Below are positions 1,498 through 64,000 of a stretch of 64,000 nucleotides of DNA, one piece after another (the first letter of the stretch is position 1; every line of letters starts with the position of its first letter). Below the pieces are notes generated by a model, which did not search any database, was not told the DNA's origin, and saw only the letters and a list, made by a program, of their open reading frames with translations. A program made the translations under genes and the position numbers. Where the stretch lies: positions 9,486,001 to 9,550,000 of the forward strand of contig JAWMAR010000013.1 in NCBI GenBank assembly GCA_036785375.1, in the 5' to 3' direction. This DNA comes from Leucoraja ocellata (taxonomy: Eukaryota).

Positions 1498-4053
1498 TTA
1501 GTTTCCACTGGCACAGCCACACCAATTCAGATCAATTGATCATTTATATCATTGCTATTAGTAGAAACTTGGTTTGTGCAAAGTAAGTGTGTGTTTGCTT
1601 TTATAACGTCAGTCAGTGCATTGTAAGGTTGAAAGAGTCTGAACTACTACAGAAATTTTTGAAATATTCTTCAGATCGGACAGCATATATGGAGGGAGAA
1701 ATAGGTGTAATATTCCAGCTTGATGACCTTTGATTCGAAATCATTTGATGACTGAAGGGAAGGAGTTCATGCCAAGGATTGGGCAGAGATCGATGGTGGT
1801 GGTGGATTGAGGCCTCCGTTGAGGATCTTGGTTGATCAGGAAGTAGATGAGAGTCTGGATCTTGGCCTTGGGAGTGCGTAGGATGTATGTGGTCAGATGT
1901 AATTATAACGATGGCACCTCCTGCAACTCTTTGTAGAAGCCGTCAGGGTACTAAGGCGTTTCATGCTTGGCCAAATTTCTTCCTTGACATGAGTGACCCA
2001 GCAGTAGTCATTACTGAATATTACTCCAACAAGAACATTGATTTTTCATTCGCATATTGTCAAAAGCAGAGATTATTATGCAATTAAATTTCTGGCCAAT
2101 AGTTTCCATGGCCTTGAATTGTTGGAAATGAAATGAGCAAATGCAGCGGACAAAAGTGAATGCTCTCTAGGTCTTTCTTAAACAGTTGGAGGCAGCTTCA
2201 TGTACTACAAATGTTGATGATTATTACTGTGTAATAAAATATTTATTCATCACCTTTTTTTTATTTTAGAGCATTTGGTGTTTTACAACTGAGTAAAAGT
2301 AAACAGGCTTCAGATTAGAATCCAATAAACTTGCATCTGAAGGTTTTGGACCAGAGTGTGGGAACACAATGACCTGATCCTGTTATTCTGTTATCCCCTG
2401 GTGCAACGTTATAGCTACCAGGAGAGTCTGTACTATTCTATTTAAGATGGTTTTGTGAAAAGAATGAGGTAACTGGCGGATTTATTATGTCTCTCGTAAG
2501 TTTCTTACATGACTTTTACTGTTGCGTTGTATATACTGAAATATTTGTTGGCAACTTACTGGATTGGCAGAACCTGGATCACGAGGCTCTGAAGTAGAAA
2601 TTAATTAGAGTGTTCTGTAAAACTCATATTAAAAGGAAGTTCAGTCATAAAGGCTATACTTTATGTCTGTTGACTGTGGAAGGAGTTGTGCCAAAAGGAA
2701 ACATATGTATACATGATGGAAACAAATTGTTACAAAAAACCCTTACAAATGATATTTTTCAGAGTGTTTTTTCCTTTCATTGTTTTTGTAGAAACATCCC
2801 ATGTCCATATTGCAAGCCCTCATCCTCCAGTAATTTGGACAGCACAATGTTTTAGAATAATGAATGATTTAATTCCGATTTTTGCACACAGCAGCCAGTT
2901 ACGGCTGATTTAAAACGAGCATTTCTGCTGCCTCTCTCCACCCTGCCTTGGAACATAAAAGAGATAAATGAAATACACAAGATGAAAAAAACACAACGGC
3001 CCCTCCCACCCGCAACATACATTTCATATTCATCAAATTGCACGTAATTTATTTTAGAATTCATAAGAGGTTAATCCATAGTTATTTCAGGTTTATTTTC
3101 TTTGTTTATTCCACAAGGCCAGAACTCGTCTCTGCTTTCGAGCCTACACATTTAATGAAACATTATAAAACTGGCATCTGGAGACCTCGGAGGACGTCTC
3201 TTGGAAGCTGGAGTTTGGGCAGTTGGGTAATCATTTTTATTCTGTTTATTTTCCAAATGGAAATAGACATGTATGATAAAAATGTCATCCACACTCTACA
3301 CATTGTCCCCTATAACAGAATTAGATGTCAATTCTTAATGTCTAGCTCTGTTTTTCTTTTCTATGAATGGATGCATTATTGCTCACAGGAACTTGACTGT
3401 AATATATGGTAAGAGACAAGTAGCTCTTTATGGCCAGTGATTATTCGGTTTGAATGAAACCTGTGATTTATGGCCATTTAACAGAAAAGTCTTGTAAATT
3501 CCCAGTGTTGCATTTTTCCTCCATACAGAACAAGACAAGTGAAAGTGACAACTGGGTTAGCCCGGAAAGTGGAATGCATAGTGCTTCAGAATGTGTTATA
3601 CTTAATAAACCTGACATGAGAAGCGTGCACATACCACACCAATGCTTTATGCAAGAGTGAAAGTGACATTAGCTCTCAGACTCACACAGTGTATGTTCAG
3701 CTAACAGTGCTGTCAATGCACATCTGTTCCATCAATGGTTTGGACAGGAAGGCAGCACCTGGGCTTTTCAAAGCTATTCAGATCAGATTTGCATAGAATG
3801 TATTGTTCCTAAAACACACTCTTATTCAGAAGAAGATAATTAGGTGCTGGAAAAAAAACTTTTTATTCTAATAAGTATTTACAAGGAAATAAAGTATTAA
3901 AAAAAAAGATAATTAATTTCCAATAGCCATTGGTCAAATGGGTAAGGGACTTTAATGATATTCTCATATATTACGATTGGGTAACATTTGATTACCCAAT
4001 ATTCATGACCAATGCATAATACTGACTTTAGACAGAAGGTAGGGTAGAAGGAA

Positions 4054-4250
4054 TGTAAAAATAAGGAACTGCAGATGCTGATTTACAAAAACAGACACAA
4101 AGTGCTGGAATAACTCAGCAGGTCAAGCAGCATCCCTGGAGAACATAGATCAGCCTGAATAAGGGCCCCGACCAGAAACATCACTTATCCTTGTTCTCCA
4201 GGGAAGCTGCCTGACCTACTGAGTTACTCCAGCACCTCATGTATTTATTT
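4054..4250. mobile_element. Fold-back element with degenerate hammerhead core (Penelope-like, non-autonomous)
   Basis: aggaactgcagatgctg head and inverted arms; CTGAATA..GAAAC at 4155-4179; perfect 14-bp TSD TAGGGTAGAAGGAA at 4040-4053 and 4251-4264. Confidence 0.75.
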
Positions 4251-4456
4251 TAGGGTAGAAGGAACCGTTTACTTTGGAATATGATTTCATCTGTAGATTT
4301 GTAATCTCATCATCCATCCAACTGTGCACTAAAAAAGATTTAAAATGTAGCAAAGAATTTGCAGTATGTAGCTGAGCACAGATTTTTATATCAAAAGTGC
4401 AGTTTAAAATAGACTGGAAAGTTTCCCAAGAAAAAAATTGCTGCAAAGGATGGAAT

Positions 4457-4492
4457 GGGGGGGGGGGGGGGGGGGGGGGGGGGGGAGAGGGG
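4457..4492. repeat. Poly-G tract
   Basis: About 30 consecutive G. Confidence 0.9.
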
Positions 4493-5612
4493 AAAGTTAT
4501 CCTGCGATTAACTCCAAATAAGATCGAACATTGTCCTGTCCTTTTTTGACTTGCATTTGTAAGAATCTGCTGAAATGAAATGCTGCAGGATTGCTCATAT
4601 GCAGATGACTGTAAATTTGGATGAATGCCAAGGAAAGGATGGGGAGGTGAGGGGAGGGAATTAAGGAATGAAACTTTAAAGCTAAAAAGCTTTTTGCCAT
4701 AATTGATGATAAGAGATATGAACTTGAAGTTTTGGAGATGTGCGGCAAGTCAAATAAATATCTGAATGAAGAATGTGGGTAAATATTTACAGCGTGGCCC
4801 TTCAGCACATCTGGCAGTGAAGCTCAGATTCCTGTTCTAGGACTTGCTTAGCCAAACTGAAACATAGCCAAAAAAAACAGGAGTTTTGTTGTGTAAATTT
4901 GATCTCTGGAATTACCCACAAAAAAGTATTTTGAAGGCAAGAAAATCCAATTTCACGTGTTTATTAGTTTCCCTGCTGTAATATGCCATTAAGTCTGAGA
5001 TTGAATCTAAATTGTCTATGCAAAAAAAATGTTTGTTTCGGGTTCCACGGAACAATATATCTTTGGTCAGTTCTAATCTTTTTTTAATATAAATTAAAAG
5101 CTTTCCATGTATTAATGCGTTGTTAATGAGCTGTTGAAAATCTCTTGAATTGCAATCAGATTATTCAGAGTGAATGCCTTTGTAATCATGCAGTTTGATG
5201 GGATTTGGGTGTCTTTCACATGTGTTTCGAATGGAGAAGGAAGTGAGTTTCTTTGGAGAATGCTTTGTAATATTTTTGACCTGTAATTTATTTATTGGCC
5301 TTTGAATGCAGTGTTCTGTGCAGATGCACATTCCCATTATCCAAAAGGGCAGGTGTGCTGCATATTGAAAGACTGTTAATTAGGATATGCTGAGAGATGA
5401 GCAAAACCCAGTACCATTAGAAAAGCAAATGCAATGTTAAACAATGTTTCAGGATTTCTATTTTGGCCAGTGTACAGGCATATTAAAATAGGTGTGCAAT
5501 TTGATCTTCAACAGTAGATTAACAATGGCTACATTATATTTTGCACAGCAGGATAAAGAGAGATTTGATGTCACGTGCATTTAAATAAGTGCACACATAT
5601 TTAATGAATTGG

Positions 5613-5803
5613 TTAAGAAAGAACTGCAGATGCTGGAAAAATTGAAGGCAGGCAAAAATGCTGGAGAAAATAAGCGGGTGGGGCAGCATCTATGGAGAGA
5701 AGGAATAGGCGACGTTTCGGGTCTTGGAATAGGCGACGTTTCGGGCGACGTCTCCACCCGAAACGTCGCCTATTCCTTCTCTCCATAGATGCTGCCTCAC
5801 CTA
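5613..5803. mobile_element. Fold-back element of the same family
   Basis: gaactgcagatgctgg head; inverted arms aggcgacgtttcggg / cccgaaacgtcgcct; small internal duplication. Confidence 0.75.
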
Positions 5804-5817
5804 TTTAATTAAATAAG

Positions 5818-6200
5818 TCATTTGAGTCATATCGCACAGAAACAGGCCATTCGGACCACCATGTCCCTGCCAACCTCGTTGCTGATTAACATTGATCCCA
5901 TTTGCCTGCATTAACTGTTTCCTTCAATGCCGTGGCCATTTACATGATGTCTAAATGCCTTTTAAACATTGTAATTGTGCCAAATTCCACTATCTCCTCT
6001 GGCAGAATTCTATTGCACAACTCACAAATACAGTTGTCGTATTTCGGCATCATATTAAGCACTCTGTGTAGAAAGAACTTACCCCTCAGAACCTCTTTAA
6101 AACTCCTTCCTCTCATCGGAAACCTAGGCCTTTTGTTTTTATACCCCTTTCATGCTATCGCCCCTATATATCTTGTCCATACTTCTCATAATCTTAAATA
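5818..6200 (-). mobile_element. CR1/HER1 LINE 3' fragment (old)
   Basis: cacagaaacaggccattcgg tail motif and degraded CR1 ORF2 end. Confidence 0.7.
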
Positions 6201-6419
6201 CATATCAGAACCTTTCAAATTTAAGAGCTTTGTGTCATTGGCTTATGACATTTCCTTAAATGTTGGTACAGGTATTTGCATTGTTTAGTATCCATGTGAA
6301 GGCTGTGTTTTAAACTTTTTGTTTATCTCACAATATAACTTTGGTTGTATTTCATGTTTTGCTCTTCAGTTTTGAGGTGATAATACCAGATTAAATTTGT
6401 TTGCCTATCCTAGTACCAC

Positions 6420-7010
6420 CTTAGGTTTAGGTTTATTACTGTCACGTGAAAGGCTTTGTTTTGCATGCTATAAAACATCAGATAATACTGTACATAAAAT
6501 TACAATCAAGTCAACTCGAGGGCAAAGGGGAAGATACAGAGTGCAGGATTTAGTTCTTTGCGTTGTAGTGCATCTGTTCTATGGACAATGTCCAACATCC
6601 GCAATGGAGTCAAGTTGAATCGGAAAGTCTTTTGGACGGGAGCAGGGAGAAGAAGGAATGACTGGGGTGGGACAAGTCTTTGATTATCTTGGCTGCTTTT
6701 CCGAGGCTATGTGAAGTGTAGATGGAGTTAATGGAGAGAAATCTGGTCCGTGTGGTGGACTGCATCCACAACTCTGCAATTTCTTGCGGTCTTGGGCAGA
6801 GCTTTGGCAAACCAAGCTGTAATGCAACCTGACAGTATGCTTTATGTGGTGAATTTGCACAAGTTTGCTGAGAGTCATTGGAAACATGTTGATTTTCCTT
6901 ACTCTCGTTCTAGAGGCATGATGTGCCTCCTTGGCTGTCACATCAATGCGGTTAAAACACCACAGATCGTTGGTAATATTAACGCTAAGGAACGTTAAGC
7001 TGTTTGTTAA
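6420..7010 (-). mobile_element. Rex1/Babar-like LINE 3' fragment
   Basis: Minus-strand peptide LSINSIYTSHSLGKAAKIIKDLSHPSHSFFSLLPS matches the Rex/Babar ORF2 C-terminus; tail gtgacagtaataaacctaaacct. Confidence 0.7.
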
Positions 7011-7387
7011 ACTTCACTGATGAAGGAATAAGGAACATGTTATCAATGTGTTGCTATGTATCCAGACTAAAACAACATCTGTACAAGAATTGAAGTCTAT
7101 TAGTTGTCTTTTAAAAAAAATACTACTACCACAGTAGAATGTAGCTGTAAATATATCACAATGGGAGAGAGATTCATCCTTGGTGTTAGTGCTAAAGCAT
7201 GCGAGAATATTGACCACCAGTGGAGATATTGCAATTGAGTAACCAACTGTAAGTAGAACAGGCACCCACTTCTCAAATGCATTCAGCGGTAATGACCACA
7301 GATGGATTTCTTCCCAAGTACTTCATTACAGCCTGTATTTTAATGCCATGGTTTCAACTTGCTTGCCCCTGAGTAGGTTATTTTCTT

Positions 7388-7612
7388 GTGTAGGAAGGAA
7401 CTGCAGATGCTGCTTTAAACCAAAGATAGACACAAAATGCTGGAGTAACTCAGCGGGACAGGCAGCTTCTCTGGAGAGCAGGAATGCGTGATACTTCTGG
7501 TCGATACATTAACTCAGTCTGAAGAAGGGTCTTGACCCAAAGCGTCACCCATTCCTTCTTTCCAGAGATGCTGCCTGTCCCGCTGAGTTACTCCAGCATT
7601 TTATGTCTATCT
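7388..7612. mobile_element. Fold-back element with hammerhead-like core
   Basis: Long inverted arms; CTGAAGA 7519-7525 and stem GGGTC/GACCC; perfect 14-bp TSD TAGGTTATTTTCTT at 7374-7387 and 7613-7626. Confidence 0.8.
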
Positions 7613-7953
7613 TAGGTTATTTTCTTCCTCAGCAGACTTTCATTTAGTTGGTTAGTGTAGCCATACTGCAGTTCCTTGAATCTACACAATTGTGGTGTTT
7701 GCATTTCTAAATCTTTGTTGGGTTCAATGCTGTTGTCATATAAGATTTATTCCACACCTCTTGAGTGTAAAATAAGCACAGCCACACATCTTTGCCCGAC
7801 ACATGTCACTACTCCTATGATTCTGTGATTCCACAGTTGATGTCCTTTGAGGCTGATGTGTAATAGATCGATGAGCACTTGCTTCAATGCTGATTTCAAA
7901 ATAATTTAGTTGGATGCTAGTTGGTGTCCTTAAGTTACCGTTTTTTTGCATGA

Positions 7954-8283
<330 letters not shown>

Positions 8284-8789
8284 TGACAGAAAGGGTTTAT
8301 TGTGCACATTCTCTGCGGCTTTGCTTTGATAATATCTTCATTATATTATATAGTGAGAAATGAACCCGCGCTGAATGCAGCTGAAATCCATAAAGAGCTG
8401 TACAGTTTAATTATCACCAACTGATTTTGAATTTGTACAAACTGGAACAGTGCTTTCCTGGAACAATTGTCTCCAGCTGCAGTTATTTTCCTGCCAACTT
8501 CTGAACAAAGAAATCAAACCATTGTTTCTATAGATTTTGCCCCAGCACCTCGTGTGTACACAACTGTATACAAATATGTATCAACTATTGTAAATTTGGA
8601 AGTGCAAGTAAAACGAGCAAAGAGAAGGAGTGAGAAACTTTGATTCCTGGCTGCAGGAAAAAAGGCTATTCTTATCTCTACAAATAGGTTTCACTGCTTC
8701 ATAGAAAAAAAGCCATGCCTTTGTTTGCATTATTTTCCAATGAGGCTTTGGAAATCAGAGGTTTGTAGAGAGCAATGGCAATGTTAGCA

Positions 8790-9190
8790 TAACGCAGAGT
8801 GCTGGAGGAACTTGGCTGTTCAGGTAGCATCGGTGCAGGGAATGGACTGGCAACGTTTTAGATCGGGACCCTTCTTCAGCCTTATTATAGTCGGGAGAAG
8901 AAAGCTGGAAAAGAGAGGTGGGGATGGGACAAAGCCTGACTGGTGATATGTGCAGGATGGAACTGCATATGCTTGTTTACACCGAAGATGGAAAAAAGTA
9001 GCTGGAGTAATTCAGCGGGACAGGCAGTATCTCCAGATAGAAGAAATGGGTGACATTTTAGCTCGAGACCCTTCTCCGAAACTTCACCCATTCCATCTAT
9101 CTAGAGATGCTGCCTGATCTGCTGAGTTACTCTAGCATTTTGTGTCTATTTGAGAAGTGATAGGTGGATACAGGTGAGGGGCTTTTGTTG
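8790..9190. mobile_element. Penelope-like 3' remnant (minus strand) with a second fold-back copy nested at ~8948-9150
   Basis: Minus-strand CTGAAGA-agggtcccgatct-AAAACGTT at ~8851-8880; purine-rich body split by a ggaactgcatatgct fold-back copy. Confidence 0.65.
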
Positions 9191-15985: not shown

Positions 15986-16094
15986 TTGTTGTTGTCTGTT
16001 GTCAATTGATGTTTTAGGTATGGCCCATTGTTACATTCCAAAACCAAAGAAATGCACACACACACACATGTTCAATTCTATATGCCATCTATAT

Positions 16095-16212
16095 CTCTTG
16101 TTTCCCTTTCCCTGACTCTTAGTCTGAAGAAGAGCCTTGACCCGAAACGACACCTATCCCTTTTTTCCAGAAATGCTGCCTGACCTGCTGAGTTACTCCA
16201 GCATTTTCTGTG
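16095..16212 (+). mobile_element. Single-arm copy of the hammerhead-bearing repeat
   Basis: CTGAAGA 16124-16130, GAAA 16144-16147, then gctgcctgacctgctgagttactccagca. Confidence 0.7.
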
Positions 16213-16449
16213 CCTGTCTGTCTTCTCTCAATTCTTTCCCTCTTTATTCACAGACTAATTGTGGATGGTTCATTGGATACTGGAAATGTTTTTTAGTGTC
16301 ACACATTTGACTGCCACTGAGTCTCCTTTTCCAGCAGCAATATGTTCACCAGAAGCTTAAACATCACCTTCTCGTGCCATATGGTGGACCTGCACACTGA
16401 AAATTAAATATATTTTTCTCAGTAATCCTCATTTGTGCAGACAGTCTCA

Positions 16450-16720: not shown

Positions 16721-16766
16721 TCGCTTCCTTCACACCCCCATCCTTATATGTTGACATATACTTTTA

Positions 16767-23915: not shown

Positions 23916-24064
23916 CGTTGTATTACTCTATAACTGAGAAATCTTTGACTGGTATTTCAGCAAATGGGATATTGATGGGGAGCTGCTTTGCAGACTCTTT
24001 TCCTGATTTTCTGCCAATGTTTTTGACCACCACGAGTGTACATGAAGTAGTAACAATGTGCAGC

Positions 24065-24853: not shown

Positions 24854-27504
24854 CTTAGGCATTTTTAAACTCAATCCACTTTTTGGGAAATGTAATGGAA
24901 TTGAGTGCAGCACTATTATATAACATTTCCATTGAAATCTCTGAATCCTGTGTCTTTCCTTCCTATCAAGTTGATAAAATTGCACTCCATATATCTATCT
25001 TCCATCATTATTATTCCTTTAATACTCTCAGAAAATTGTGTCTAATGCTATGCAGTAGAATTTAGTTTTAAGATGCTGTTCTGAAAAGTTTATTTCTCAA
25101 GAGATTTTATATTTTTTACCCATTTTCTTGAGTGGTTCCTATTTTTCTTTTCCTCCAATTTTATAAATATCAGCGGAGTTTACAAAAGATAGAAAATAGG
25201 GAAGCAAACAAAGCAATGGATGGGGGGGTGGGAGGGGGTTAGATCGGGGATTAGAAACAGTGAACAGAATTTGCCTAGACCATAAAAATCACATGTTCTG
25301 ACTAATCTACTCAAGTATAGAAGAAGGGCTTGGGGAAGGAACTTCTGGGGCTCATGGTCTTGGCAACTGATGGCAATTATCTATCATCGGGCAATCACAT
25401 TACTTTGAAAATGATCAAGAGGTCAGATGTAGACGCATGCATTTAGCTCAAAAGAGATTCCACTCAGATGCAGAGGAAAGATTACACTGTGATTTGAAAA
25501 TAAGGGTGCGAGTTTAAAAACAAGAACTAATTTAAGATCAGTTAGCACGGGATGGCGACTTTGAGACTGATTTAGTTTGCATTAACTCTCATAGGCAGCA
25601 GAGTTCTGAATGTTGCTGTAGTTTACTGAGAATGAAATTACCCAGAAGTTATGAAGAGGTAATAAAAGAATGGATAAACGGGTTTCAGCAGACAAATTGG
25701 TTATGTTGTCACAATACTCTGCTTGTGACCAAATTTCTCCTTCAGAGCTTTCCCTACCACTCCCTCAATGGCTGTTGTGGGATCAACCCACCATGGTATC
25801 ACAGATGTGGATACAGGATAAGAAACGGCCACTTCTTTTGTACTTTGCTACAGAGACCACCCCAAGAAGCTCTAAAGAGATTTTAACATACATGTTTGTT
25901 AATTTTAGTGCACGATCCTTCCTGAGATTTCATAATTCCCCTGGATAGTCCTAATTTTCTGATCCGGCCGTTCGGAATTGTTCATTTGAATGATTTTGCC
26001 TTGTTGGTGCTGTCTTGTGTAGTACTATTTTTCTCAGCCCGTACATTGACAAACAATGAATTGTTCCATTAACCTGTCAGCAACCCTTTGCAGGCTGCTA
26101 GAAATTACATCCATGTGACCTTGGCACTCCCCACTGTAGTACTGTATTCTGGGGAGACTGGGAGGACATTTTTGGCTTCATCACCTCTGAAGAAATATTC
26201 TCTTCAAAATGTAACAAGTGCAAAGGATTGTCAAGGAATTTCAGCAACTCAATATTGTACTGTATTTTTACCAATTAAAATTACTTTTAAACATAGAGAA
26301 AGTGAAGGGTGTGAAGAAACTGAGTACTATTTTAGGCAAACTCAGGACCCTGATCCGTGAAATGTCATTAATTTCACCTTTTGGATTTGTGAGTGTAAAA
26401 CTCTACTGATTTGAGCATCCCTGGAAATTGTGTAGTGATTTAAAATGTTAATCTTGGATGAGCTTGTTTCATTGTAATTTGTTCCTTCAAGCTTTGCGGA
26501 TCTTAGTAAATTCTAACAATTTAGATGCTGAACATCATGAAGTGTAGTTCTAATTATCTCTCAAAAGGGTAAGAAAAAATTGATAGTTGCCACATGCTCT
26601 TGAATAAGCTGAATGTGCAATCTGGCTGTTCTGCAGTGGCCCAATGTTCAGCAAGAGAAATGAGCACATTTCAGACATCAGCTATGTGACCTGATCACTC
26701 AAATTAATGATAGTAAAACAGTAAATTTTACAAGAAATATATAAAAGTTGAAGTATTTTTACATTATGCTTACCCTTAAAAAACATATTGTGTTTATATT
26801 ACCTCGGTGGTGAACTTGATTAAAATTGATATTTTAGGGTGCATGCGTTAGAATTGCAGTGCGCTGCTAAACTAGTTTATAAAAAGTCTCCCGTGGGAGT
26901 CCTTGGCTCTCAAGGGTACCTTGTAAAGCTACCTGGAGTTAATTTAAGTGTTCACAGAGTGCAGACACTACTATCCATACTCTCTAAACATTTAAATGTT
27001 AACTCCGAGGAGAGGAGCTCTGTGCAGGCATGTAACCAAGCATACACCAAGCTCTCTCCTGGGTAGGGGAATTGGAGTTCCAGTCAAGCAGTGTAAATAG
27101 GAACTGATACTAAAGCCAACAATCTGAGACCGAGCGCCAGCATAAATGCAGTATTAAGCTCTAAACTGCAATTTCTGAAACTAGCTCTACACAGTATATA
27201 ATTACAGCAGTACAATATAAAGGCACTATTACCCATACTGCAGATTAACCATTCTATTAAAGGATTTAATCAAAATATATTTATTATAACAATTGTTTCA
27301 TTTACATGTTCTTTGTAATTTTATTTCTGAACTGTTTTAGTCAGTTTAGATGAGTTTCCTATGCATAGGAATTAAAGAGCGTTTAGTTTGGATGCGAGCC
27401 CCGTTAATGTTTGCGCAGTTTAGTTTGAAAGTATATATCAAAACTATTTGCTTGAAGAAAGGAGAGATAGAATAATACTAAATCACTGTCCAACTAAAAT
27501 GTGA

Positions 27505-27690
27505 ACAACATGCTGAAGTAACTCAGCGGGTCAGGCAGCATCTCTGGAGAACATGGATAGGCGACGTTTCGGGTCTTTGACGCGAAACGTCAAATATCCA
27601 TGTTCTTTGGAGATGCTGCCTGACCCGCTGAGTTACTCCAGCACTTTGTGCCTTCGTTTGTAAACCAGCATGTGCAGTTCTTTGTTTCTA
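27505..27690. mobile_element. Fold-back element, hammerhead family
   Basis: Inverted arms aactcagcgggtcaggcagcatctc / gagatgctgcctgacccgctgagtt; GAAACGTC in both arms. Confidence 0.75.
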
Positions 27691-28431
27691 AAATATTCCC
27701 AATTTTCAGGGCTAATGGGGTTGTGACGTATTGTCGGCGAATTTTACTCAAAGGAATGTATTTTGGAGGCAGTGCAGAGTGCAGGACCACCATGTCGTAC
27801 TTTTAGCACTCCTGATCAGGGATTGAACTTGTTTCCCTGCAGACCTGGCACTTGAGAAGGGCCAAGCGTTGGACTTGACCAACAAAAGTGACTTGAGGAT
27901 ATATGTTCTGCTTTCCTAGCAGACATTTCCAATTGGGTTTTGTATTAACAGGTTTTATATGAATAAAGGGATGCTATTTTAAATATTACAACTCTCTGAA
28001 GCTTATGAATTATAATCCTGTTGTTTCCATCTTAAAGGAGCTCTGTGTGTTGCACAGTGGTGATGAACAGATAAGGAATGTGTGACATTCAGGCGAGCAG
28101 AGACAACGGCATGAGATAAGGATGTATCCAAGTAATAGTAAACCTCTCTGATCATGTAAAAGCCATAGATTAACATTTATTTTTAAATCCATGAGCATCA
28201 AATGCATCAGTGCAAGCAAGCACAGGTAGTCTAAATAAACCAATAAATGAACAGCACAGTTTTCATGCCCTGAGGACAAGCCAAAGTGGAAATGTCACAC
28301 ACTAGAGGTCAAAGCTTGAAGCTGAGAGGTAGAATGTGTAATGGAGACTTTCTAAAGCAAGCTTTCTACACAAAAATTAGCTGGTGTTTGAAATATGCTG
28401 CCAGAGAAGGTGATAGAAGCAGATACAATAG

Positions 28432-29955: not shown

Positions 29956-30887
29956 AAAACCCTAAAGCAGATGCAAACCTCTTCTCACTCGCTGCACACG
30001 ATCCACATGTACTATTCTGTTTGAAAGTGAGCCCTAGAGAAGAACAGCCAGTTATTTTCCAGGAGAACGTAACCCCTGAACCAAATAACTTAAAAATACA
30101 TCCTTTTCCAAATGACAAAATATTATACTTCAGTCTAGTGTTTCCTGATTTGAATTCAGATGCTTCCTCTCAATATGTTTAGCTTTTGAAAGCTCAGATT
30201 GGGTTCCATGCAGGCTTTCAGTGTACGATTAAAATTGATGGATGAGCATGCCACTCGGTCAAGAATTGGATAAAATAACCCAAACCTTCTGCTATCAAGA
30301 GGATAGAATAGCAAGCAGCTGCAGTTAATAAAAGCTTTCCCGTAGATATTTTGTGTATTGAATATAAATTTGACAGATTATAAAATTGGTGCAAGGGTTT
30401 TCAACCTTAGCAGAAATGCATGTAATTCACAACATGCTTGCCCACCCATATAGTCCAATCATTTTATGTGTTGATTTTCTGCACATTTAAAATGCCTATG
30501 TCAACATTTGGGTCAGAACATATATTATAATTAATAACTAATACAATATTTTCAGTTATATTATTTCAATGTTTTTATTTTCAATACATTTGGGTTTAAT
30601 TTTATTGAGATTTTATTTGAGTGCAATTCAGTAGGGGAAAAAAGTGTGGAGTGTATTATTAAAATAAGGTGATTGGAAACAAAAAAACATTCTGTACTTT
30701 TGTTCATGAGAATAATGTTGATTTTGCAGTGTAGCATTTAATTGATTTTAGAATGAATGTTTTTAACTATGACATTTTTGACTCCACCATGTTTCTCTCC
30801 GGCAACTTGTTGCTGTTCTGTGACAGTGGGAATATTGGAAGCTTATGACTAAACTTGTGAACCGAGCACGACAATAATGTTATAATT

Positions 30888-30987
30888 AAAAAAAAAACAC
30901 AAAGTGCCCGAGTAACTCAGCGGGTCAGGCAGTATCCCCGGAGAACATGGACAGGTGACGTTTCCGCGCGAGACCCCTCTTGAAACC
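30888..30987 (-). mobile_element. Single-arm hammerhead-family repeat
   Basis: Arm gagtaactcagcgggtcaggcag...ggtgacgtttc; 11-bp TSD ATGTTATAATT/ATGTTATAGTT at 30877-30887 and 30988-30998. Confidence 0.7.
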
Positions 30988-32217: not shown

Positions 32218-32882
32218 TGAATGTATTCCAAAGGAACGTGTTTGCTCAAATTTAAAAATAATGGAAGTATATTGGTGAAGCTGATTTGAAGCCTTTGCTC
32301 AGTGTGAATCTTCAAGCTAAGCCAAGACATGAATCAACTATGTAGGCTGATGATTTCTATAAAACCAAAGGATGAGTTGTTACTGCTCCATCTCATTCAT
32401 TCTCTGATTTTAATATCATAGTTAATTAGCTGAAGAAATAAACAGATGAACAAAATAATGTAAACTTGCAAATGGTACTGAATTAACAGATTTCTTCACA
32501 TGAGTACATATGAAACACAATATAATTTGAGGTTGCACAGTTAGCTGACTATTCAAGCAACTCCTGAATTAAACATTTGCAAAGTTTAAAATGGTAATAT
32601 AGTCTAATTAAACAGAAATTCTTGCTAATATTTTTCGTTTAGCTCCAGATTTTAATTTCATACAGCAACGTATAATCATGCCATTTCTGCCACAAGTACT
32701 GCTTCTAGCAATAGTCTCAGAGCTGCTTCTCTTAGGCAAGAAGTGTTGCTGGGCCATGTTGTTATTAGCTAATAATTTATTTTGGCTCCTTGTTTATACT
32801 GAAGCATTTAAGGTTCATATTTGTTTTGTGATTCTTTGGTAAGTGAATTTGGGGATTTGACTACAATGGGAATTGAATAATT

Positions 32883-33048
32883 AGACAAAAGGCCACAAAC
32901 GACTGGAGTAAGTCGGCGGGTCAGACAGTGTCCCTGGAGAACATCTGTGGGTGACGTTTGGGGTCGGGTCTTGACCCAAAACCGGCCGAGTTACTCCAGC
33001 AGTTTGTGTCCTTTTGTGGAAACCAGCATCTGTAATTCTTTGCTTTTA
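32883..33048. mobile_element. Fold-back element, hammerhead family (internally deleted)
   Basis: Inverted arms ctggagtaagtcggc / gccgagttactccag; flanked by GAATTGAAT repeats. Confidence 0.65.
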
Positions 33049-34639
33049 AGAATTGAATTTAACATTTCCTGGAGTGGGAGGTTTTCAAGTGCTGGTATGT
33101 CATCAGATTCGAAAGTTCCAGTGAGGATGCATACTTGATGAAAGAAGGTATCCTGACCTTGCTTTTTCTTGCAAAATAATCTCTATTTAATGATTTATCT
33201 TTAACTTATACACTGGAATTAAAATAATTTAAAGAAAACCTGATGTTATAGTTCAGGTAATCAGAGGCATCTGAGAAACATGATCTGTGTTCTGACTTGT
33301 GAGACTGACCATAGCTCACTTGTGACTTTGTGCTCGTGAGTTACCCAGTCGGCCTTACTTATGGACATATATATCATATTTTACGACTGGCCATGACAGC
33401 TACTCTATTTATACCTATCAAGGTGCTTGCTAGGTGTCACGAGTATTGAGTTTGCTTCTAAACTCAGAGTGATAGAATATGTTGGTTAAGGTGACACAAA
33501 CAGTGATCCTGGACGACTGAGTCTTGCATATCAATATTACAGCTCATAATATATTTATCATAATGTGGCTGAGGGTTAAATGGATTGTGCTTTAACTATT
33601 CATGGCTTCTGTTCTATTTTTGACATAATGATCAACTTAACCTCCAGAGGAACTTTCAGAAGCATAATTAGAAACCAGCTTGAGGTTAACTAATTAATTA
33701 ATATTATTCCAATTGTTTCAACTGAGGTTTGAAAGAATCATCTGTGAAAGATGTACTGAAAAGTTAATTTCTGCTGAGTGAATAAGCCATTTCTATTAAA
33801 TTTTATTCATTAATCTTGTGTATTTGCTTAATGGAAATGATGTGAAATTGTGTTACATCTTTGGTTTAGTCCATAAGCTATTCTTTTGCAAGGGAGAGTT
33901 TTAAAAGCGGAATTAATCTACAATACTACTCTGCTAATAGGAAGGCCTGCTGATTGAGATGTTATTTTCTTCAACTTGATGCTGTTTGCAAATGTTTTGT
34001 GTTAGAGCAGAAGTTTCCTGGAAATTAATATTGCTGAAAGGGTAGGCATTAACCAACATTATAGAAATGTTATAAATCTAAAGTTGACAGTGTTGAAACT
34101 TGGAGCTGGTTTCGTAAGTGTTTGGGCAAGTAAAAACAAATTTAGTCAATTAACAGCTAAGAATATAACTTTGAACTTCACCCGATTCAAACCGTTTATA
34201 AAGGAGAAAAGAACAAATTTGCTCCGACAGCAAAGTGTAAAATTCTTCTTTGTGATTCTTTGGTGAGGAAGCAAATTTAATGAAAGAGACTGCACTAATT
34301 TATTAATCTTACTTTTCCTTTCAAAATGATCCCTATTAATTGATGTGTGGATGACTGAATATAGTTGTCTCTGGTTATAATGAAAGCCCTGCATGTGGTG
34401 ATACTGATTTTTGATAAGCAAAACAAAAAGATATATATTGTTAATTATAACAGAATTCATGATTATGTTGTGTATGTGGAGTAAGTTAGAAAAATATTCT
34501 CAATAGAACATGAGGAATAAGACGGCGCAAGCCAGGGTCCTGTGAACAATTAGTAAGATCATCACTTTCCTCCCAAATCCTCATCCATGCATTCCAATGA
34601 AATCTAAAAATCTGCCATTCATGGTCTTCAATATTCTCT

Positions 34640-34958
34640 ATGTTTAGTGTAATTTAGTTTATAAATCAGCGTGGAAACACCGTTCTGCCCTTTGAGTCCA
34701 CACCGTTCATCGATTACCCATATGCTGATTCTATGTTATCCTATGTTCGCATCCTACACAATTGGGGTAATTTACAGAAGCCAATTAACCTACAAACTTG
34801 CACGTCTGTGGAATGTGGGAGGGAAATGGAGCACCTAGAGAAAACCCATACGGTCACAGAATGTACAAACTCCACACAGATAGCACCCGTAGTCAGAATC
34901 CAACCTGGGTCTCTGGCGCTATGAGGCAGCAGATCTACCGTTGCTCCACTATGCCACA
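34640..34958 (-). mobile_element. HE1-like SINE
   Basis: Homologous to the copy at 60143-60447. Confidence 0.8.
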
Positions 34959-40999: not shown

Positions 41000-41302
41000 A
41001 CGCTGCCATCATTCATTTCTCTGTATCTACATTCCTCCAGATAGATCAGCTATGATCCATCTGCATTATCACCCTATCTTCAATGGCATGGACAACATTT
41101 GTTTTACCTGGACAACTTTGGTTTGCCACCCTGTCCCCGACATTCCTTTGTTCTTTCCACCTCTCCATTTTCTGCAAGTTAAAACCCACTTGTTTTCTCC
41201 ATTTTCCAGTTCTGATGACAGATCGTTGATCTGGAACTTTAACTTTCCTTCTATCTTCATAGATGCTGTGTGACCTGCTGAGTATTGCCAAGATTTTCTA
41301 TT
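41000..41302 (+). mobile_element. Older Penelope-like 3' remnant with hammerhead-like core
   Basis: Pyrimidine-rich body, then agtt-CTGATGA(41212-41218)-c-agatc-gtt-gatct-GGAAC-tttaact and gatgctgtgtgacctgctgagta. Confidence 0.6.
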
Positions 41303-42144: not shown

Positions 42145-43188
42145 ATATTTTTATACATTTTGGTTTCACCATGCAGAAATTACAGCAGTATTTATACATT
42201 CATTATGCTACTACCATCAGCAGTTGTATCATCAATGAATGGGCCAGTACCTTCAACAGCCATACTTGCCAGGCCATAACACCCTCACCACCATGTTTCA
42301 TAGATGAGGTGGCATACTTTGGATCTTGGACAGTTTCTTCTCTCCTCCATACTTTGCTCTTGCCATCACTCTTATATATTAATCGTCGTCTCATCTGACC
42401 ATTTTCCAGAATTGTGGTTACTCTTTTAAGTACTTCTTGGCAAACTGTAACGTGGCCATCTTTTTCTTGCAGTTAACCAGTGGTTTGCATCTTGTAGTGT
42501 AGTCTCTGTATTTTTGTTCATGAAGTCTTCTGCGGACAATGGTCATTGACAAATCCACGCCTGACTCCTGAAGAGTGTTTCTGATCCGTCGGACAGGTGT
42601 TTGGGGATTTTTCTTTCTAATAGAGAGAATTCTTATGTATTCAGCTGTGGAGGTCTTCCTTGGCCTGCCAGTCCCTTTGCGATTAGTAAGCTCAGCAGTG
42701 CTCTCTTTCTTCTTAATGATGTTCCCAACAGTTGATTTTGGTAAGCTTAAGGTTTGGCTGATGTCTCTGACAGTTTTATTCTTGTTTCTCAGTCTCATAA
42801 TGGCTTATTTGACTTTCATTGGCACAACTTTAGTCCTCATGTTGATAAGCAGCAATAAAAGTTTCCAAAGGTGATGGAAAGACTGGAGGAAATACTAGGT
42901 GCTGAGAGCTCTCTTATACCTGCATTAAGGAGGCATTTAAATACACCTGAGCAATTACAAATGCCTGTGAAACCATGTGTCCCAAACCTTATGATGCCCT
43001 GAAATGGGGGGACTATGTATAAACACAGTTGTAATTTCTACATGGTGAAACCAAAATGTATAAAAATACCCTGTAATAAAATCTGACAATGTGCACTTTA
43101 ACCACATGTGATTTTTTTCTATTACAAATCTCAAATAGTGGAATACAGAGGCAAATAAATAAATGATGGGTCTTTATGGAGGGTACTG
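42145..43188 (-). mobile_element. Decayed Tc1-family DNA transposon
   Basis: Transposase remnants: paired-like HTH...GRPRKT (42418-42798) and VWRR...KHGGEGVMAW (42203-42394); right end reads CAGTACCCTCC on the minus strand beside TA; partial inverted repeat 42146-42199 versus ~43015-43068. Confidence 0.88.
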
Positions 43189-53738: not shown

Positions 53739-53831
<93 letters not shown>

Positions 53832-55728: not shown

Positions 55729-55822
55729 TGGTCTGAAGACGGGTCTCGACCTGAAACGTCACCTGTTCCTTTTCTCCAGAGATGCTGCCTGACCCGCTGA
55801 GTTACTCCAGCATTTTTGTCTA
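55729..55822 (+). mobile_element. Single-arm repeat with near-intact minimal hammerhead ribozyme motif
   Basis: GGT-CTGAAGA-C-GGGT-CTCG-ACCT-GAAA-CG-TC-ACC (55730-55763); 13-bp TSD AATTCATACTCCA/AATTCATACCCCA at 55716-55728 and 55823-55835. Confidence 0.75.
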
Positions 55823-56127
55823 AATTCATACCCCAAATCTGGCCTCATTTTAACTGCCTGGTGTAGGCTGTCACTTGCACCAAATAAGACCGCTAGTGCA
55901 TTCGCAACTTGTGCACCGGTGGGAATCTTGTATAGAGTCAGTAATGATTTAATGTACATTCTGAATCATCTAATGGCTGCTTACGAAACTAGCTGCTCTC
56001 ATTCATGAAGATTCATGTGAAATGGAACCAATTATTCTGGACCATAAACGATGTGACATTATTTCAAGCTCTGAAGGTAGCATTACATATATCTGAGGGT
56101 GCCTTTTATCAAGATCCTTATAAACAT

Positions 56128-56890: not shown

Positions 56891-56926
56891 GGTGTCAAAT
56901 CAAATTGCTCCCTACGTGATCTAGAA

Positions 56927-57150
56927 TGTAGAAGCAAAGAACTGCAGATGCTGGTTTATACCAAAGATAGATGCAAAGTGCTGGAGTAACTCAGTGGGTC
57001 AGGCAGCATCTAGAGGAAAAGGATAGGTGACCTCTTTTGGATCGGGCCACTTCTTCAGACTGAAAGTGGGGTCCCAACCTGAAACGTCACCTATCCTTTT
57101 CCTCCGGAGATGCTGCCTGACCCACAGAGTTGTTCCAGCACTTTGAGTGT
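56927..57150. mobile_element. Fold-back element, hammerhead family
   Basis: gaactgcagatgctgg head, inverted arms, central cttcagactgaa, GAAACGTCACC at 57081. Confidence 0.75.
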
Positions 57151-57799
57151 ACTCAAGATGGTTTGGCTGGTTAGTAAATTTCCTGTGGATGTTCACAGCA
57201 TACGTGGAGGTAATCTCAGTTTTCCATGGCCGTGCCCTGAACCTTCGCTGTGGGAGATTGGAGTTGCACATTCGAGCCGGTTAAAGTGGGTTCACGCGCC
57301 ACCTCCTATCGGCAAGACCCTCAGGATCGAGGATGATGTGCTTTAACTGTTGTGACTTTACCTCTGAGGACACTGTCAGTTCTTCAAAGGATGGGGCAGG
57401 CGTGTAGTTTGGGAGATGGTGTGTCTTCTCCCAAGTTTCCATTCCATTGCTCTTGATACACGCACGCATGCGAGTTTATCAATACCATCTCTAAAGTTCC
57501 TTCACTCCTTGAGTGATGAGGAGTGACAAGGGATGTGGCGTTTCTTCAAGGACGGTGTGAGCTCATCATTTTCTGTGTCTAACATGTCAGAGCTTGGAAT
57601 AAATTGTTTCAGGACCTGCTGCCTAGATGCAAAGACATTGCCCAACATTACTAAGGCCTCAGTACTTGGAATGGTAGCTTGGAAGGACACTCATTCATCC
57701 TCCCATTGAGACAACCTTGGACGTTATTGTCTTGTCACTGGAGGACTTTGCCTCGGGCAATCCAGGTCTCCAAAGCTTCAGAGGTGGGGTGTACACGCT

Positions 57800-59824: not shown

Positions 59825-60012
59825 CAGAAGAAACTGCAGGTGCTGGAATCTTGAACAAACACAAAGTGCTGGAGGAACTCGGTGGGTCAGGCAGCATCAG
59901 TGGAGGGAATGGGCCATCAATCTGAAGAAGGGTCCCGACCCAAAACGTCGTCTGTCCATTCCCTCCACATTCGCTGCCTGACCCGCTGAGTTCCTCCAGC
60001 ACTCTGTGCTTG
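59825..60012. mobile_element. Fold-back element, hammerhead family
   Basis: aactgcaggtgctgg head; CTGAAGA 59922-59928 and stem gggtc/gaccc. Confidence 0.75.
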
Positions 60013-60142
60013 CTTCTAGAAATGGCAGATCAGGTAAACAGGACAACGGGCTTCTCCTGCTTGTGATTTATGTTCTGAGATCAGTGGTTCACTGTGTCTG
60101 TGCGCCACACTGGTTTGTTCTCCCAGTTTAACATTTCTGAAC

Positions 60143-60447: not shown

Positions 60448-61036
60448 TGTGTGCAATGCTGTTAAGCTTGGGCAGTGTATACAAACCACGCATTAAAAGA
60501 CAGTACATCACAAACAGCCAGCAACACTTGGCACAATTAATAATTACTATTGTTTGGCCTTGTTATTATATTTTTTCTAAGAAGAAGTGAACGACAACAT
60601 ATATTTTATAAAATGATACTTATCCATGATGAGGAAAGGTTACTGTGGTTTGCATCTACTCAGTGTGACGTGAGAACAATGTGCCCATTGTTTGTGTGCA
60701 TTCATCCATTCTATGAATTCACATTTTGAAACAGGCTAATTTACAATCCGTAAATTACAAGTAAAAGATCTAAATAGTAGCTTGGGTTCCGATTAACCCA
60801 TCAGGCAGGTTAGCTGATCAGGCAAGGCAGAGAGTGTAGAATCATGGCCCGAGGAATTGCTGTGTGTGCAGAGCCCTATTGCTCAGTGGAGAACCACAAA
60901 TCATCGCGGTGTCCAAGGAGGTTATTTGCTCACTCAGTCCACGGAACGGCAACCCGTTTGGAGTCTGCGTGCTCTTCTGGTCACCCCATTCCAGCAATGA
61001 TGTGGAGGCTTTGGAGAAGGTGCAGAAGAGGTTTAC

Positions 61037-61135
61037 CAGAAGAAGGGTCTCGACCCGAAACGTCACTCATTCCTTCTATCGAGAGAGAGATGCTACCTGT
61101 TCCGCTGAGTTATTCTGGCATTTTGTGTCTATCTT
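61037..61135 (+). mobile_element. Single-arm hammerhead-family repeat joined to a short CR1 fragment (60960-61036)
   Basis: cagaaga-agggtctcgaccc-GAAACGTCACT. Confidence 0.7.
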
Positions 61136-61150
61136 AGGTGTCTGGTTTCA

Positions 61151-61370
61151 GGGAGAACAAACCAGTGTGGGTGCACAAACACAGTGAACCACTGATCTCA
61201 GAACATAAATCACAAGCAGGAGAAGCCCTTTGCCCCATTTACCTGATCTGCCATTTCTAGAAGCAAGCACAGAGTGCTGGAGGAACTCAGCGGGTCAGGC
61301 AGCGAATGTGGAGGGAATGGACAGACGATGTTCTGGGTCGGGACCCTTCTTCAGATTGATGGCCCATTCC
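61151..61370 (-). repeat. Inverted duplicate of 59906-60124
   Basis: The reverse complement aligns by eye with about 9 differences in ~220 bp, including ~110 bp of non-element flank. Confidence 0.9.
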
Positions 61371-62009
61371 TTACACCTAGCTGTTTCCTCCCACGTCCCA
61401 AAGACTTTCCCTGTACCTCGGTACACGTTGAATGGTTTCATGAATCAATGGATCGATGGTGCTTTATTAGTCACGTATGCAAGTGCCTACAGTTAAAATG
61501 CATGTAGTGCACACGCGGGCACCGCCATCTATAGGCACCATTTCCAAAGATCTACGTCTGGTCTTCAATAAACGTAAACCTAAACCTCTGTTCACAGGGT
61601 TGAATTTGAGGACGGAGAGAAACAAACACGACCACCTTGACCAAGTCCCAGGCCTAGAGTAAGGCCAGTGACTGCAGGTGAGTCACCTGGGCATTGTAGA
61701 GGGAGAGCTTTCAAAACATCGATCTGGTTCTGGGTTCATGATCCTCCCCAGGGGGAACGTTGTGAATAAAGATAAACTGGCATGTTTTGTTTGTGCTTTA
61801 CCTGTTATTCGATGTGACAATGGAGTTAGTTGATGGGGATGCTGAGGTTGAGATGGTATAACTGAGTCAAGAACCAAGGGTGCTTTATTGTCATATGCAT
61901 TGGAACGGAACAATTAAATTCTTACTTGCAGCAGCACAACAGGTTTGTAAACGCAGTTCTTAATAAATAATGTAAACAAACGAAAAAAATTTGAATAAAA
62001 CCAATATGG

Positions 62010-63595
62010 TGTGGCGGCTCCTAAGGGTCGGGCCATTTCCACTATCGAACCCCTCGGCACGGGAATGGATGAGTCCAGGGGCGGCCCTTAACTAGAGGGA
62101 TAAAGGGCAGGGGTTTAGGTGCCATCTTCCTCTTGCAGACGCGTCTGGTCAGGAGAAGGACAGCGATTGAAATACCTCCCGAAACACCTGGCTCCTCGCC
62201 TACATTTCGGGATTATCGTCGCGCTACATTGGTGACCCCGACGTGATCCACGGGCTGGCTCACCCATCCATCCGGGCGTCGACGGCACTTGTGGCTGCTC
62301 GGTTCATAAGGCACGGTCTGCGCAAGCAGGTTGGCCACTGGGCCCGCACATGCATTCCGTGCCAGACGGCGATAATCCAGCGCCCCTCCAGGAGTTCGGT
62401 CTACCACGCCGGCGTTTCGACCATCTCCACGTGGACATTGTGTGGCTTCTCCTGCCGTCCCGGGGCATCACCCACCTCCTCATGATGGTGGACCGCTTCA
62501 CGCGGAGTCCATACCATTGGCCGATACTTCAAAGGGCAACGTGCGCTCGTGCGTTGTCCGCGCACTGGATTGCTCGCTTTGGGGTGCCGGTGGACATCTC
62601 CTCGGACCGGGGGCCACAGTTCACCTCTGAGCTGTGGTCGGCCATGGGTCACTTGTTGGGTGTGAGGCTGCACCACACCATGGTCTATCACCCGCAGACA
62701 AACGGCCTGGTAGAGGGGTTCACCGGCAGCTCAAGGCAGCACTGAAGGCGCGACTCTCTGGCCCGGACTGGATGGACGAGCTGCCGTGGGTCATGCTGGG
62801 CATCTGAACTGCGCTTAAGGAGGAGGACGGCCTCATCCTCAGCGGAGCCTCATGTACGGGTCGCCACTCACGGTGCCGGGGAGTTCGTGCCATCGGCGCC
62901 GGGGCAGCAGAGACCGCCCTCGTCCACTCTACAGCGCCTTTGTGAACGAGTTGGCTGGCCCGTGCCCGTGCCGACGTCCCGCCATGGGACATTCCGCCCG
63001 CACGTGCCATCGGCCCCCCGGGACTGCCCTTATGTTTTCCTGTGCCGTGATGCCACCGGACGCCATTCCGGAGACCGTATGATGCTGTTCCGGGTGCTGG
63101 AACACGGGCAGACGACTTTTGTGTTGGACATTGGGGGCCGGCCGGAGGCCGTATCGATTGACCGGTTGAAGCCGGCGCACCTGGACATTGACCAATCGGT
63201 GCTGGTTGCCCAGCCACGGCCGCGAGGTCGCCCCCCTTCACGGCTCCCTCCGCCTGTCACTCCACCTGTGCCTCCGCCAGCCCCTTGGTTGGCCGACTTC
63301 CGTACGCGGTCTGGTCGGGTTGTACGCCTGCCGGTGCGTTTCGTGCCTCCTGTTCTGGGGGGGGGGGGGGGGATCCTGTGGCGGCTCCCAAGGGTCGGGC
63401 CATTTCCACTATTGAACCCCTCAGCACGAGAACGGATGAGTCCGGGGGCGGCCCCTAGCTAGAGGGATAAAGGGCAGGGGTTTAGGTGCCATCTTCCTCT
63501 TGCAGACTCGTCTGGTCAGGAGAAGGACAGCGATTGAAATACCTCCCCAAACACCTGGCTCCTCGCCTTCATTTCGGGATTATCGTCGCGCTACA
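62010..63595 (+). mobile_element. Internally deleted Ty3/Gypsy LTR retrotransposon (only an integrase remnant is left)
   Basis: 219-bp LTRs TG...CA at 62010-62228 and 63377-63595 with about 11 mismatches; PBS TGGTGACCCCGACGTGAT 62230-62247 (tRNA-Trp); poly-G PPT 63357-63372; integrase motifs HGLAHP..CIPCQ, HVDIV, SDRGPQFTSELW, YHPQTNGLVE, IDRLKPAH, with frameshifts; imperfect 4-bp TSD atgg/ttgg. Confidence 0.93.
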
Positions 63596-63770
63596 TTGGT
63601 GTAAAACAAAACAAAGCCCAAAGTTAAGGACCTGGTGCAGATGTAATTGACTCTGTATGTGGTCTAACTATTCTTGGCTTCTATGGTGGGATTTTGGATA
63701 TTAAAGGGATTGAGGGAAGAGGGGGTATGGCAGGAAAATGAGCTGGAAGTTCAGCCATGAGACATGTTGA

Positions 63771-63929
63771 GGATACAAAGTGATGGAGTATCTCTTCAGC
63801 CTGAAGAAGGGCCTTGACCCGAAACATCACCTCTCCATGTTCTCCAGAGAAGCTGCCCGACCTGCCGTTACTCCAGCACTTTGCGTCCTTTTGTGCACTA
63901 ACCAGCATCTGCAGTTCTTTGTCTCTACG
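63771..63929. mobile_element. Hammerhead-family element inserted in a CR1 tail (~63690-63990)
   Basis: CTGAAGA 63801-63807 and GAAA 63821-63824; 13-bp TSD TGAGACATGTTGA/TGGGACATGTTGA at 63758-63770 and 63930-63942. Confidence 0.8.
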
Positions 63930-64000
63930 TGGGACATGTTGACTGGTGGAGCAAGTCCATGGATGTTGAACAGATAACTGCTGTTCCTGTCATGTTGGAA

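Follow-up and report, generated by a model that had tools for sequence, protein, structure and literature searches.

We describe a family of short, hammerhead-bearing repeats in a 64 kb stretch of the Leucoraja ocellata genome (the window; JAWMAR010000013.1, positions 9,486,001–9,550,000, from an assembly of 3.44 Gb), and we think it quite probable that they are 100–135-bp pieces of the pseudo-long terminal repeat (pLTR) of an intact Neptune-type Penelope-like element (PLE), laid down singly, as abortive insertions, by the enzyme of that parent. The arm is the same sequence as the segment of the parent from hammerhead to tail, the parent is itself intact, and the copies display a head-to-head polarity, two preferred 3' ends, target duplications and a pile-up of 5' ends at the edge of the hammerhead core. 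We call these pieces stubs.

The parent was reached by searching the genome with GIY-YIG pieces found beside motif loci. Ten motif loci, chosen by eye out of 30, were translated, and a GIY-YIG end lies upstream in all of them; of five such pieces, three have Pfam support, which is weak. The intact parent sits elsewhere in the genome (on contigs C8 and C1) as a unit of 3,946 bp, tandemly repeated head-to-tail, with an open frame of 1,233 codons whose first Met, at codon 13, gives a protein of 1,221 aa. This protein shows the motifs GLTF, DKG, QGVAMG and YLRYIDD, a C-X4-C-X2-C linker and, at its C-terminus, an endonuclease of the GIY-YIG type and the CCHH kind, in which CxxC sits between IY and YIG. 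The hammerhead motif stands 120 nt after the stop of this frame and, in tandem, again ~165 nt before the next start. Thus, the proposal of a preliminary description of this DNA that the repeated arm could be the pLTR of a Penelope open reading frame (ORF) with reverse transcriptase (RT) and GIY-YIG domains was borne out: the arm follows an intact frame of that kind. As excerpted from PMC8557442, a CX2-5CxxC linker together with CCHH in a C-terminal endonuclease marks Neptune, the linker being common to Nematis, and the vertebrate PLE clades are given as Neptune and Poseidon in an extract of bioRxiv 10.64898/2026.07.22.740005. The parent would be Neptune-type by its linker and CCHH motifs. Two consecutive units are identical at 3,946 of 3,946 positions and a third unit on another contig agrees at 3,937 of 3,946, and open frames of at least 1,150 aa are found in 10 of 150 scored matches; given such identical units and long frames, the activity of the parent is likely to have been recent. 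A search for homologues returned 745 full-length proteins at E ≤ 1e-20, the best with 55% identity, many of them annotated with both domains and none named after a clade, and a PDB sequence search gave no relative. The window copies align only to unit positions 1–125, counted from C3 of the core, and hold no ORF; tblastn of the parent protein against the window gave no match. ORF-linked relatives are present for most of the stub subfamilies seen in the window.

Some further features of the parent and its young copies were observed. The locus L114 holds a partial 5' copy of the unit, and the intact protein encoded at this locus (2947–6609) has a long proline-rich stretch ahead of GLTF, which makes it ~300 aa longer than most listed homologues. 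RNA reads of a related organism map to the ORF at this locus ~3:1 toward one first-mate strand and evenly to the pLTR. Kilobase-scale head-to-head inversions occur within the ORF of young copies at L072, L075, L116 and L119, and the fold-back geometry of the stubs matches them.

The family was detected with blastn and with a profile hidden Markov model built from natural copies, using reversed sequence as control. In the window the profile search detects 24 arms, which make up 16 loci, whereas the reversed sequence gives none; 8 loci are head-to-head fold-backs, 8 are single arms and none is tandem, the individual pieces measuring ~100–135 bp. All 15 coordinates given for copies in the preliminary description fall on or beside a family locus; at its coordinate 41000 the true family arm is 41211–41301, and a minus-strand locus at 61259–61361 had been overlooked. 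The abundance reported there also stands, the measured density in the window being one locus per 4 kb instead of one per 5 kb. The statement that the motif is often present twice in inverted orientation holds insofar as 8 of 16 loci are fold-backs, but the hammerhead region lies on both arms only at 7388 and 56927.

On the scale of the genome, exact matches to a 33-nt motif number 11,534 and those to the intact core pattern with free loop 85,235, the control giving 0 in both cases. Forty other 10-kb stretches, which were arbitrary picks on contigs C2–C400 and no random draw, contain 3.9 loci per 10 kb (bootstrap 3.0–4.9) and 5% of their bases belong to the family, which by extrapolation amounts to about 1.3 million loci. 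Near-identical locus pairs (97–99%; for example, L003/L004, L011/L012, L026/L027 and L065/L066) are separated by 80–500 kb within a contig or are split between two contigs; they suggest segmental duplicates or the presence of both haplotypes in the assembly, and locus counts are inflated by such duplicated regions. The anatomy of the copies was studied on 664 kb, formed by the window, 200 kb of neighbouring sequence and the 40 other stretches, with 359 arms at 254 loci.

The majority letters over the 188 core-covering arms of this sample reproduce the consensus of the preliminary description and, with it, the hammerhead layout: the invariant core, an extra nucleotide, G10.1–C11.1 and the palindrome at positions 15–16. 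This core layout is kept across subfamilies with different untranslated regions (UTRs). Individual copies have decayed, since the core is kept in 60 of 188 arms, and 20 of 188 retain with it helix II, the 2 bp of helix I and the palindrome; of the 14 window arms that cover the core, 2 have it intact (C3 at 55733 and 63801), and helix II, the ACGU palindrome and the core are all kept only at 55733. The least conserved core positions are CpG sites, with G12 at 70%, which is the pattern expected of neutral decay. Pairing in helix II stands at 94%, and helix I has 2 bp followed by an A–C mismatch. Changes between subfamilies in the helices leave pairing in place but are one-sided (U–A to U–G, C–G to U–G), and changes on both sides do not exceed those in shuffles (112/500) for 20 chosen sequences. 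The youngest subfamily has GUU as its triplet. An Rfam scan of the window gave no hammerhead match at E ≤ 10; its only matches were to MIR2118 and were driven by the hairpins. Despite UTRs of differing length and sequence, subfamilies retain the block from TCAGT to GUH, which argues for selection in the parents; the motif is, we think, inherited cargo, probably selected only in the parent and decaying in the stubs. The ribozyme is assigned from its sequence layout and its cleavage is putative; published minimal motifs cut weakly as dimers (excerpt of PMC4209133), and one has been described as cutting only with the protein of its element (excerpt of PMC11167929).

Folding predictions place the hammerhead fold of single arms 2–11 kcal/mol above the minimum, whereas in six fold-backs it lies 45–55 kcal/mol above the hairpin, and 17.6 kcal/mol above it in the 7388 copy of the window; fold-back transcripts are predicted to bury the core in the hairpin. 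A role of the inverted arm in dimer formation is not supported: the arm is antisense, and therefore supplies no palindromic dimer, and the hammerhead fold of fold-backs is predicted to lie well above the hairpin.

The 254 sampled loci comprise 173 single arms, 65 head-to-head pairs, 1 tail-to-tail pair and 15 other arrangements. The 3' ends are bimodal, ~30 nt apart, and fold-backs combine one long and one short arm in 37 of 65 cases, with two long arms in 5 and two short arms in 2. An exact flanking repeat of 8–19 nt is found in 37 of 91 fold-backs, a larger set that includes selected loci, compared with 1.7% of shuffled pairs. The junctions between the arms are varied. The commonest, a fold at the palindrome TCAG-W-CTGA, accounts for 11 of 64 and has 1,683 exact matches in the genome. 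Inspected by eye, 15 loci with this junction belong to several subfamilies, the two arms of each locus sharing their subfamily; in 8 of them the primary arm bears the tail, in 6 the secondary arm does and in 1 neither. The occurrence of the commonest junction in several subfamilies, with the tail on either arm, speaks against a fold-back master copied as a unit. The subfamily letters of paired arms agree in 81–95%, compared with 45–76% expected, and paired arms have 17 rare letters in common, compared with 4.2 in shuffles, which suggests that both arms could derive from one RNA molecule. All of these marks have precedents in the PLE literature: inverted 5' copies and one-sided tails (PMC8557442), duplications of 8–10 bp and palindromes at the junctions (PMC3846280), minimal hammerheads that occur in pairs on opposite strands (PMC4209133), and an RT that starts at two internal sites, on both target strands, and copies uncut RNA (PMC11167929).

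A further mark is at the other end of the stubs. Judged through target duplications, 23 of 130 single arms have their 5' end at −8 to +5 of C3, one pair among them being a duplicate locus, compared with 0.7 in shuffles, and 20 of 130 have it elsewhere, compared with 7.25; the letters of the parent fade between −3 and −6 of C3. We found no earlier description of such a pile-up of 5' ends at the core edge. In a related organism, the DNA contig depth and the RNA depth both drop more than 10-fold at about −4, in part because UTRs differ among subfamilies. At the cut site there is no comparable accumulation: starts at model positions 36–40 number 2, 1, 1, 0 and 1 among the 173 single arms, and no RNA read starts or ends there are listed for ~6% of the reads of the poly(A) run of the relative, which is weak evidence because that library was fragmented. 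We also considered whether the pyrimidine-rich UTR holds an intron that ends at the CAG before the core, and no such joint was among those listed. The TCAGT sequence at the edge resembles an initiator. An internal promoter is reported for the Penelope element of Drosophila virilis (excerpt of PMC2377424), and from these two points together the 5' end of the transcript may have been copied by run-off to give the stubs, the alternative being a stop of the RT.

The abortive insertion that we favour would proceed as follows. The GIY-YIG domain would nick the target with a stagger of 8–19 nt, and the RT would begin inside RNA of the element that is still uncut. It would start at either of two sites separated by ~30 nt, a pattern measured for Poseidon of Anolis, and would mostly stop at TCAGT, just before the core. 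Both target strands could prime, one per site, and the resulting cDNAs would join head-to-head, often via the palindromes of the motif; the outcome would be a fold-back in which one arm alone is tailed.

Several observations weigh against this explanation. Among the core-bearing single arms, 67 of 87 have no UTR-like or ORF sequence upstream; in this unselected sample, the others carry a pyrimidine-rich remnant (15/87) or endonuclease sequence (5/87). The 5' ends are too uniform for random truncation, and a short self-contained transcription unit also fits them. The extra G that a cap would leave at the 5' end found no support (6 of 20 cases, p = 0.45). The best-matching arm from other loci shares 28 rare letters, as against 17 for the partner arm. 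The Pfam scores of the parent protein are below the cut-offs both for RVT_1 (28.5 against 29.6, E 1.5e-6) and for GIY-YIG (16.2 against 22.6, E 0.013). Finally, no GIY-YIG sequence stands directly upstream of arms of one subfamily, CCATG, whose CCATG motif has 2,785 exact matches, at any of 25 distinct loci or of 5 more. One apparent ORF-linked CCATG copy was rejected, as the link belongs to a neighbouring arm.

A second explanation is that some of the stubs, chiefly those of the CCATG subfamily (five window loci and, among the 272 arms that were classed, 44), form a non-autonomous lineage resembling short interspersed elements, with a ~130-nt unit that is transcribed from a start of its own at TCAGT and re-inserted in trans by the Neptune protein. 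The sharp 5' ends, the many exact CCATG matches and the failure to find an ORF-linked CCATG copy would be natural for such a lineage, and trans-mobilisation by pLTR sequence is reported for a rotifer (PMC3846280). Nevertheless, we consider it rather unlikely. The same stub anatomy is found in subfamilies with ORF-linked members, and of 280 stubs no more than 15 resemble a fellow stub much more closely than they do an ORF-linked arm. By analogy with Anolis, whose RNA needs ~55 nt past the RT starts (excerpt of PMC11167929), a sequence that the stubs do not copy, they might lack what re-insertion demands, and some CCATG copies themselves bear UTR remnants. As a general account, the non-autonomy proposed in the preliminary description is not supported, given the varied junctions, the commonest junction recurring in several subfamilies and the tail on either arm; CCATG alone, judged from its copies, may be a non-autonomous subfamily.

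The same description had named the repeats candidate retrozymes, in which hammerhead-cut tandem units give circular RNAs that are re-inserted. The ribozyme type and the pLTR origin are indeed those proposed for animal retrozymes in the extract of bioRxiv 10.64898/2026.07.22.740005, and the genome has 241 tail-to-head junctions as well as 66-bp tandem arrays that stem from the same arm. However, the tail-to-head junctions are rare compared with the 85,235 intact cores, their spacers are varied and their subfamilies often mixed (judged by eye), the window loci are single or inverted and never tandem, and neither copy ends nor RNA read ends pile up at the cut site. Tandem arrays of full ribozymes being absent from the window, we regard non-LTR retrozymes as very improbable. 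A more abundant tandem form, with 24,429 exact and clustered junctions, is a 66-bp head-to-tail minisatellite that takes in the arm from G12 to about +86 of C3. Its unit lacks CUGANGA and its junction differs from the cut site; without the core, it is therefore a minisatellite derivative and no retrozyme. In the loci seen, the arrays have 2–9 units that are 88–100% alike. They lie outside the window (for example, at L206, L215, L220 and L236–L255, the last at C1:18.05–20.7 Mb) and attach to copies that belong to various subfamilies, their first units being chimeric, which suggests later invasion. An apparent one-strand polarity of these arrays was a listing artefact, as L213 holds a minus-strand array.

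Least probable of all is that the repeats are MER6-like miniature inverted-repeat elements moved by a DDE transposase, with an incidental hammerhead match, since their long inverted arms and strong hairpins, and a Tc1-type transposase fragment in the window, are outweighed by unequal arm ends, varied junctions, duplications of 8–19 nt in place of the 24-bp terminal inverted repeats and TA of MER6 (known here by description, from an excerpt of PMC6887750), an arm that forms the terminus of an element with RT and GIY-YIG, and single arms at half of the window loci. The parent element and the length of the target duplications refute this reading. The transposase fragment is an N-terminal piece on the minus strand at 42418–42804 (HTH_Tnp_Tc3_2, E 1e-11).

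Other repeats of the window are distinct from the family. Another family of dispersed repeats, whose head is tRNA-like, occurs for example at 24063, 28434, 50151, 59208 and 60144 on the plus strand and at 34858, 39724 and 59626 on the minus strand, and we take it to be a V-SINE of sharks and rays. The MER6-like label of the preliminary description may belong to this tRNA-headed family and not to the fold-backs. A fragment of an rve integrase core (E 9e-11) lies at 62010–63601 between 225-nt direct repeats that are 95% alike, in what looks like a shortened LTR retroelement-like insertion. At 1065–1293 there is an 87-nt inverted repeat, 94% complementary with a 55-nt spacer and unrelated to the family.

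The fold-back stubs of the window illustrate the range of junctions and of decay. The CCATG-type stub at 4054–4250 joins a tailed minus arm without core to a short plus arm with a decayed core, between 14-bp target duplications at 4040 and 4251. At 5613–5810 the junction falls within helix II, with a short internal duplication and no CUGANGA. The stub at 7388–7618 is folded at the TCAG-W-CTGA palindrome, with a tailed minus arm and a short plus arm (C3 at 7519, G12 decayed), a 14-bp target duplication at 7374 and 7613, and a predicted hairpin of −141.7 kcal/mol (z −16.9). A tailed minus and a short plus arm also form the stub at 8949–9156, which has a 10-bp target duplication with 1 mismatch. 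Two more fold-backs are of the CCATG type: the one at 27496–27695, with its junction within helix II and the plus arm tailed, and the one at 32882–33049, with an internal deletion and a 9-bp target duplication at 32870 and 33050. The stub at 56927–57153 is folded at TCAG-W-CTGA, with both cores decayed and the minus arm tailed, and that at 59825–60017, of an older subfamily, has a plus-arm core with G12 decayed and C3 at 59922.

The single arms are equally diverse. An older subfamily is represented by the minus-strand arm at 8788–8945, with a pyrimidine-rich 3' UTR remnant, whose relatives sit behind GIY-YIG fragments (L309, L313). The plus-strand arm at 16080–16213 retains ~47 nt of 3' UTR remnant and a core complete save U16.1. 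At 30878–30986 (minus), a CCATG-type arm begins at the 5' edge of its decayed core, with an 8-bp candidate target duplication. The old, divergent plus-strand copy at 41150–41301 (arm 41211–41301, C3 at 41212) has a pyrimidine-rich remnant upstream and a helix II that differs in sequence but pairs. The only fully intact motif of the window is in the plus-strand arm at 55729–55828 (C3 at 55733), with a target duplication of 9 bp exact, or 13 bp with 1 mismatch. The plus-strand arm at 61037–61141 is cut off within CUGANGA. The minus-strand arm at 61259–61361 lies within a local inverted duplicate of 59900–60106, and is therefore no independent insertion; the duplicate pair (59900–60106 and 61170–61376, 1,063 nt apart) is 95% alike over 207 nt and takes in ~100 nt of non-element flank. 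A tailed CCATG-type arm occupies 63771–63928 on the plus strand, with the arm from 63795, an intact core (C3 63801), a decayed palindrome and a 10-bp target duplication at 63761 and 63933.

Compared with endonuclease-bearing PLEs of the Neptune clade, as portrayed in the excerpts of PMC8557442 and PMC3846280, the family has in common the single frame with RT and C-terminal GIY-YIG, the Cys linker and CCHH, as well as tandem pLTR units, a pLTR hammerhead, an inverted 5' copy, a tail at one end, target duplications and palindromic junctions. It differs in the extrapolated ~1.3 million loci (~5% of sampled bases), in the dominance of 100–135-bp stubs that run from the 5' edge of the core, and in the proline-rich N-terminal part of a protein of 1,221 aa, compared with 670–1,130 aa for most listed homologues. 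The motif agrees with published minimal type I hammerheads of PLEs in CUGANGA, the extra nucleotide before helix II, G10.1–C11.1, GAAA and ACGU for helix III, and in being mostly single with some opposite-strand pairs. Helix I has 2 bp here, as in D. virilis, compared with 4–5 bp in Schistosoma, and the GUU of the youngest subfamily is a further difference. The intact cores number 85,235 here, compared with ~4,000 for the coelacanth and ~9,000 for Xenopus, under differing search rules. Poseidon of Anolis carolinensis (excerpt of PMC11167929) likewise has two 3' ends ~30 nt apart and no RNA ends at the cut site; its copies, like those here, extend across that site, so that the RNA used as template must be uncut. 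It belongs to another clade, and the ORF here starts ~165 nt behind C3, with the two ends in the 5' UTR and not in the ORF. Non-LTR retrozymes (excerpts of PMC7229834 and bioRxiv 10.64898/2026.07.22.740005) have in common a type I hammerhead, a relation to pLTRs and the absence of coding sequence, but they are head-to-tail arrays with a full ribozyme per unit, whereas the repeats here are single or head-to-head and their tandem derivative is coreless. With MER6, as excerpted from PMC6887750, the hairpin look is the sole likeness, MER6 being Tc1/mariner-derived with 24-bp terminal inverted repeats, a TA duplication and a V-SINE domain.

A literature search that did not extend to subscription journals, Repbase and Dfam turned up no publication on the family, and the supplements of bioRxiv 10.64898/2026.07.22.740005 (one chondrichthyan genome) and PMC4209133 may cover it. 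The class of element, the hammerhead and the fold-back insertions are already in print, and therefore this is no new system. The repeats are, in our view, likely to be insertions that lead nowhere, from an element whose kind is known; what stands out is mainly their huge number and their 5' start at the core edge. A broader picture can be drawn tentatively, and we hold it as possible but doubtful: the stubs would be a fossil record of a million events, in which transcripts start at TCAGT, initiator-like and doubling as hammerhead helix I, priming 100–135 nt downstream copies only the 5' end of the RNA, and two-site, two-strand priming yields the fold-backs; the coreless 66-bp derivative would be a parasite of the stubs that has spread, in the form of tandem arrays, to copies of various subfamilies (24,429 junctions), and CCATG its ORF-less source lineage.

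A warning follows for annotation: motif searches count tens of thousands of 'ribozymes' in this genome, mostly passive stubs, whose hairpins mimic miniature inverted-repeat elements and microRNA precursors, as the false MIR2118 matches illustrate. At the same time, the recent intact copies, together with about a million dated insertions, constitute a test bed for Penelope transposition, in which it can be addressed why 5' copies are inverted, why the tail is one-sided and what the role of the hammerhead is.

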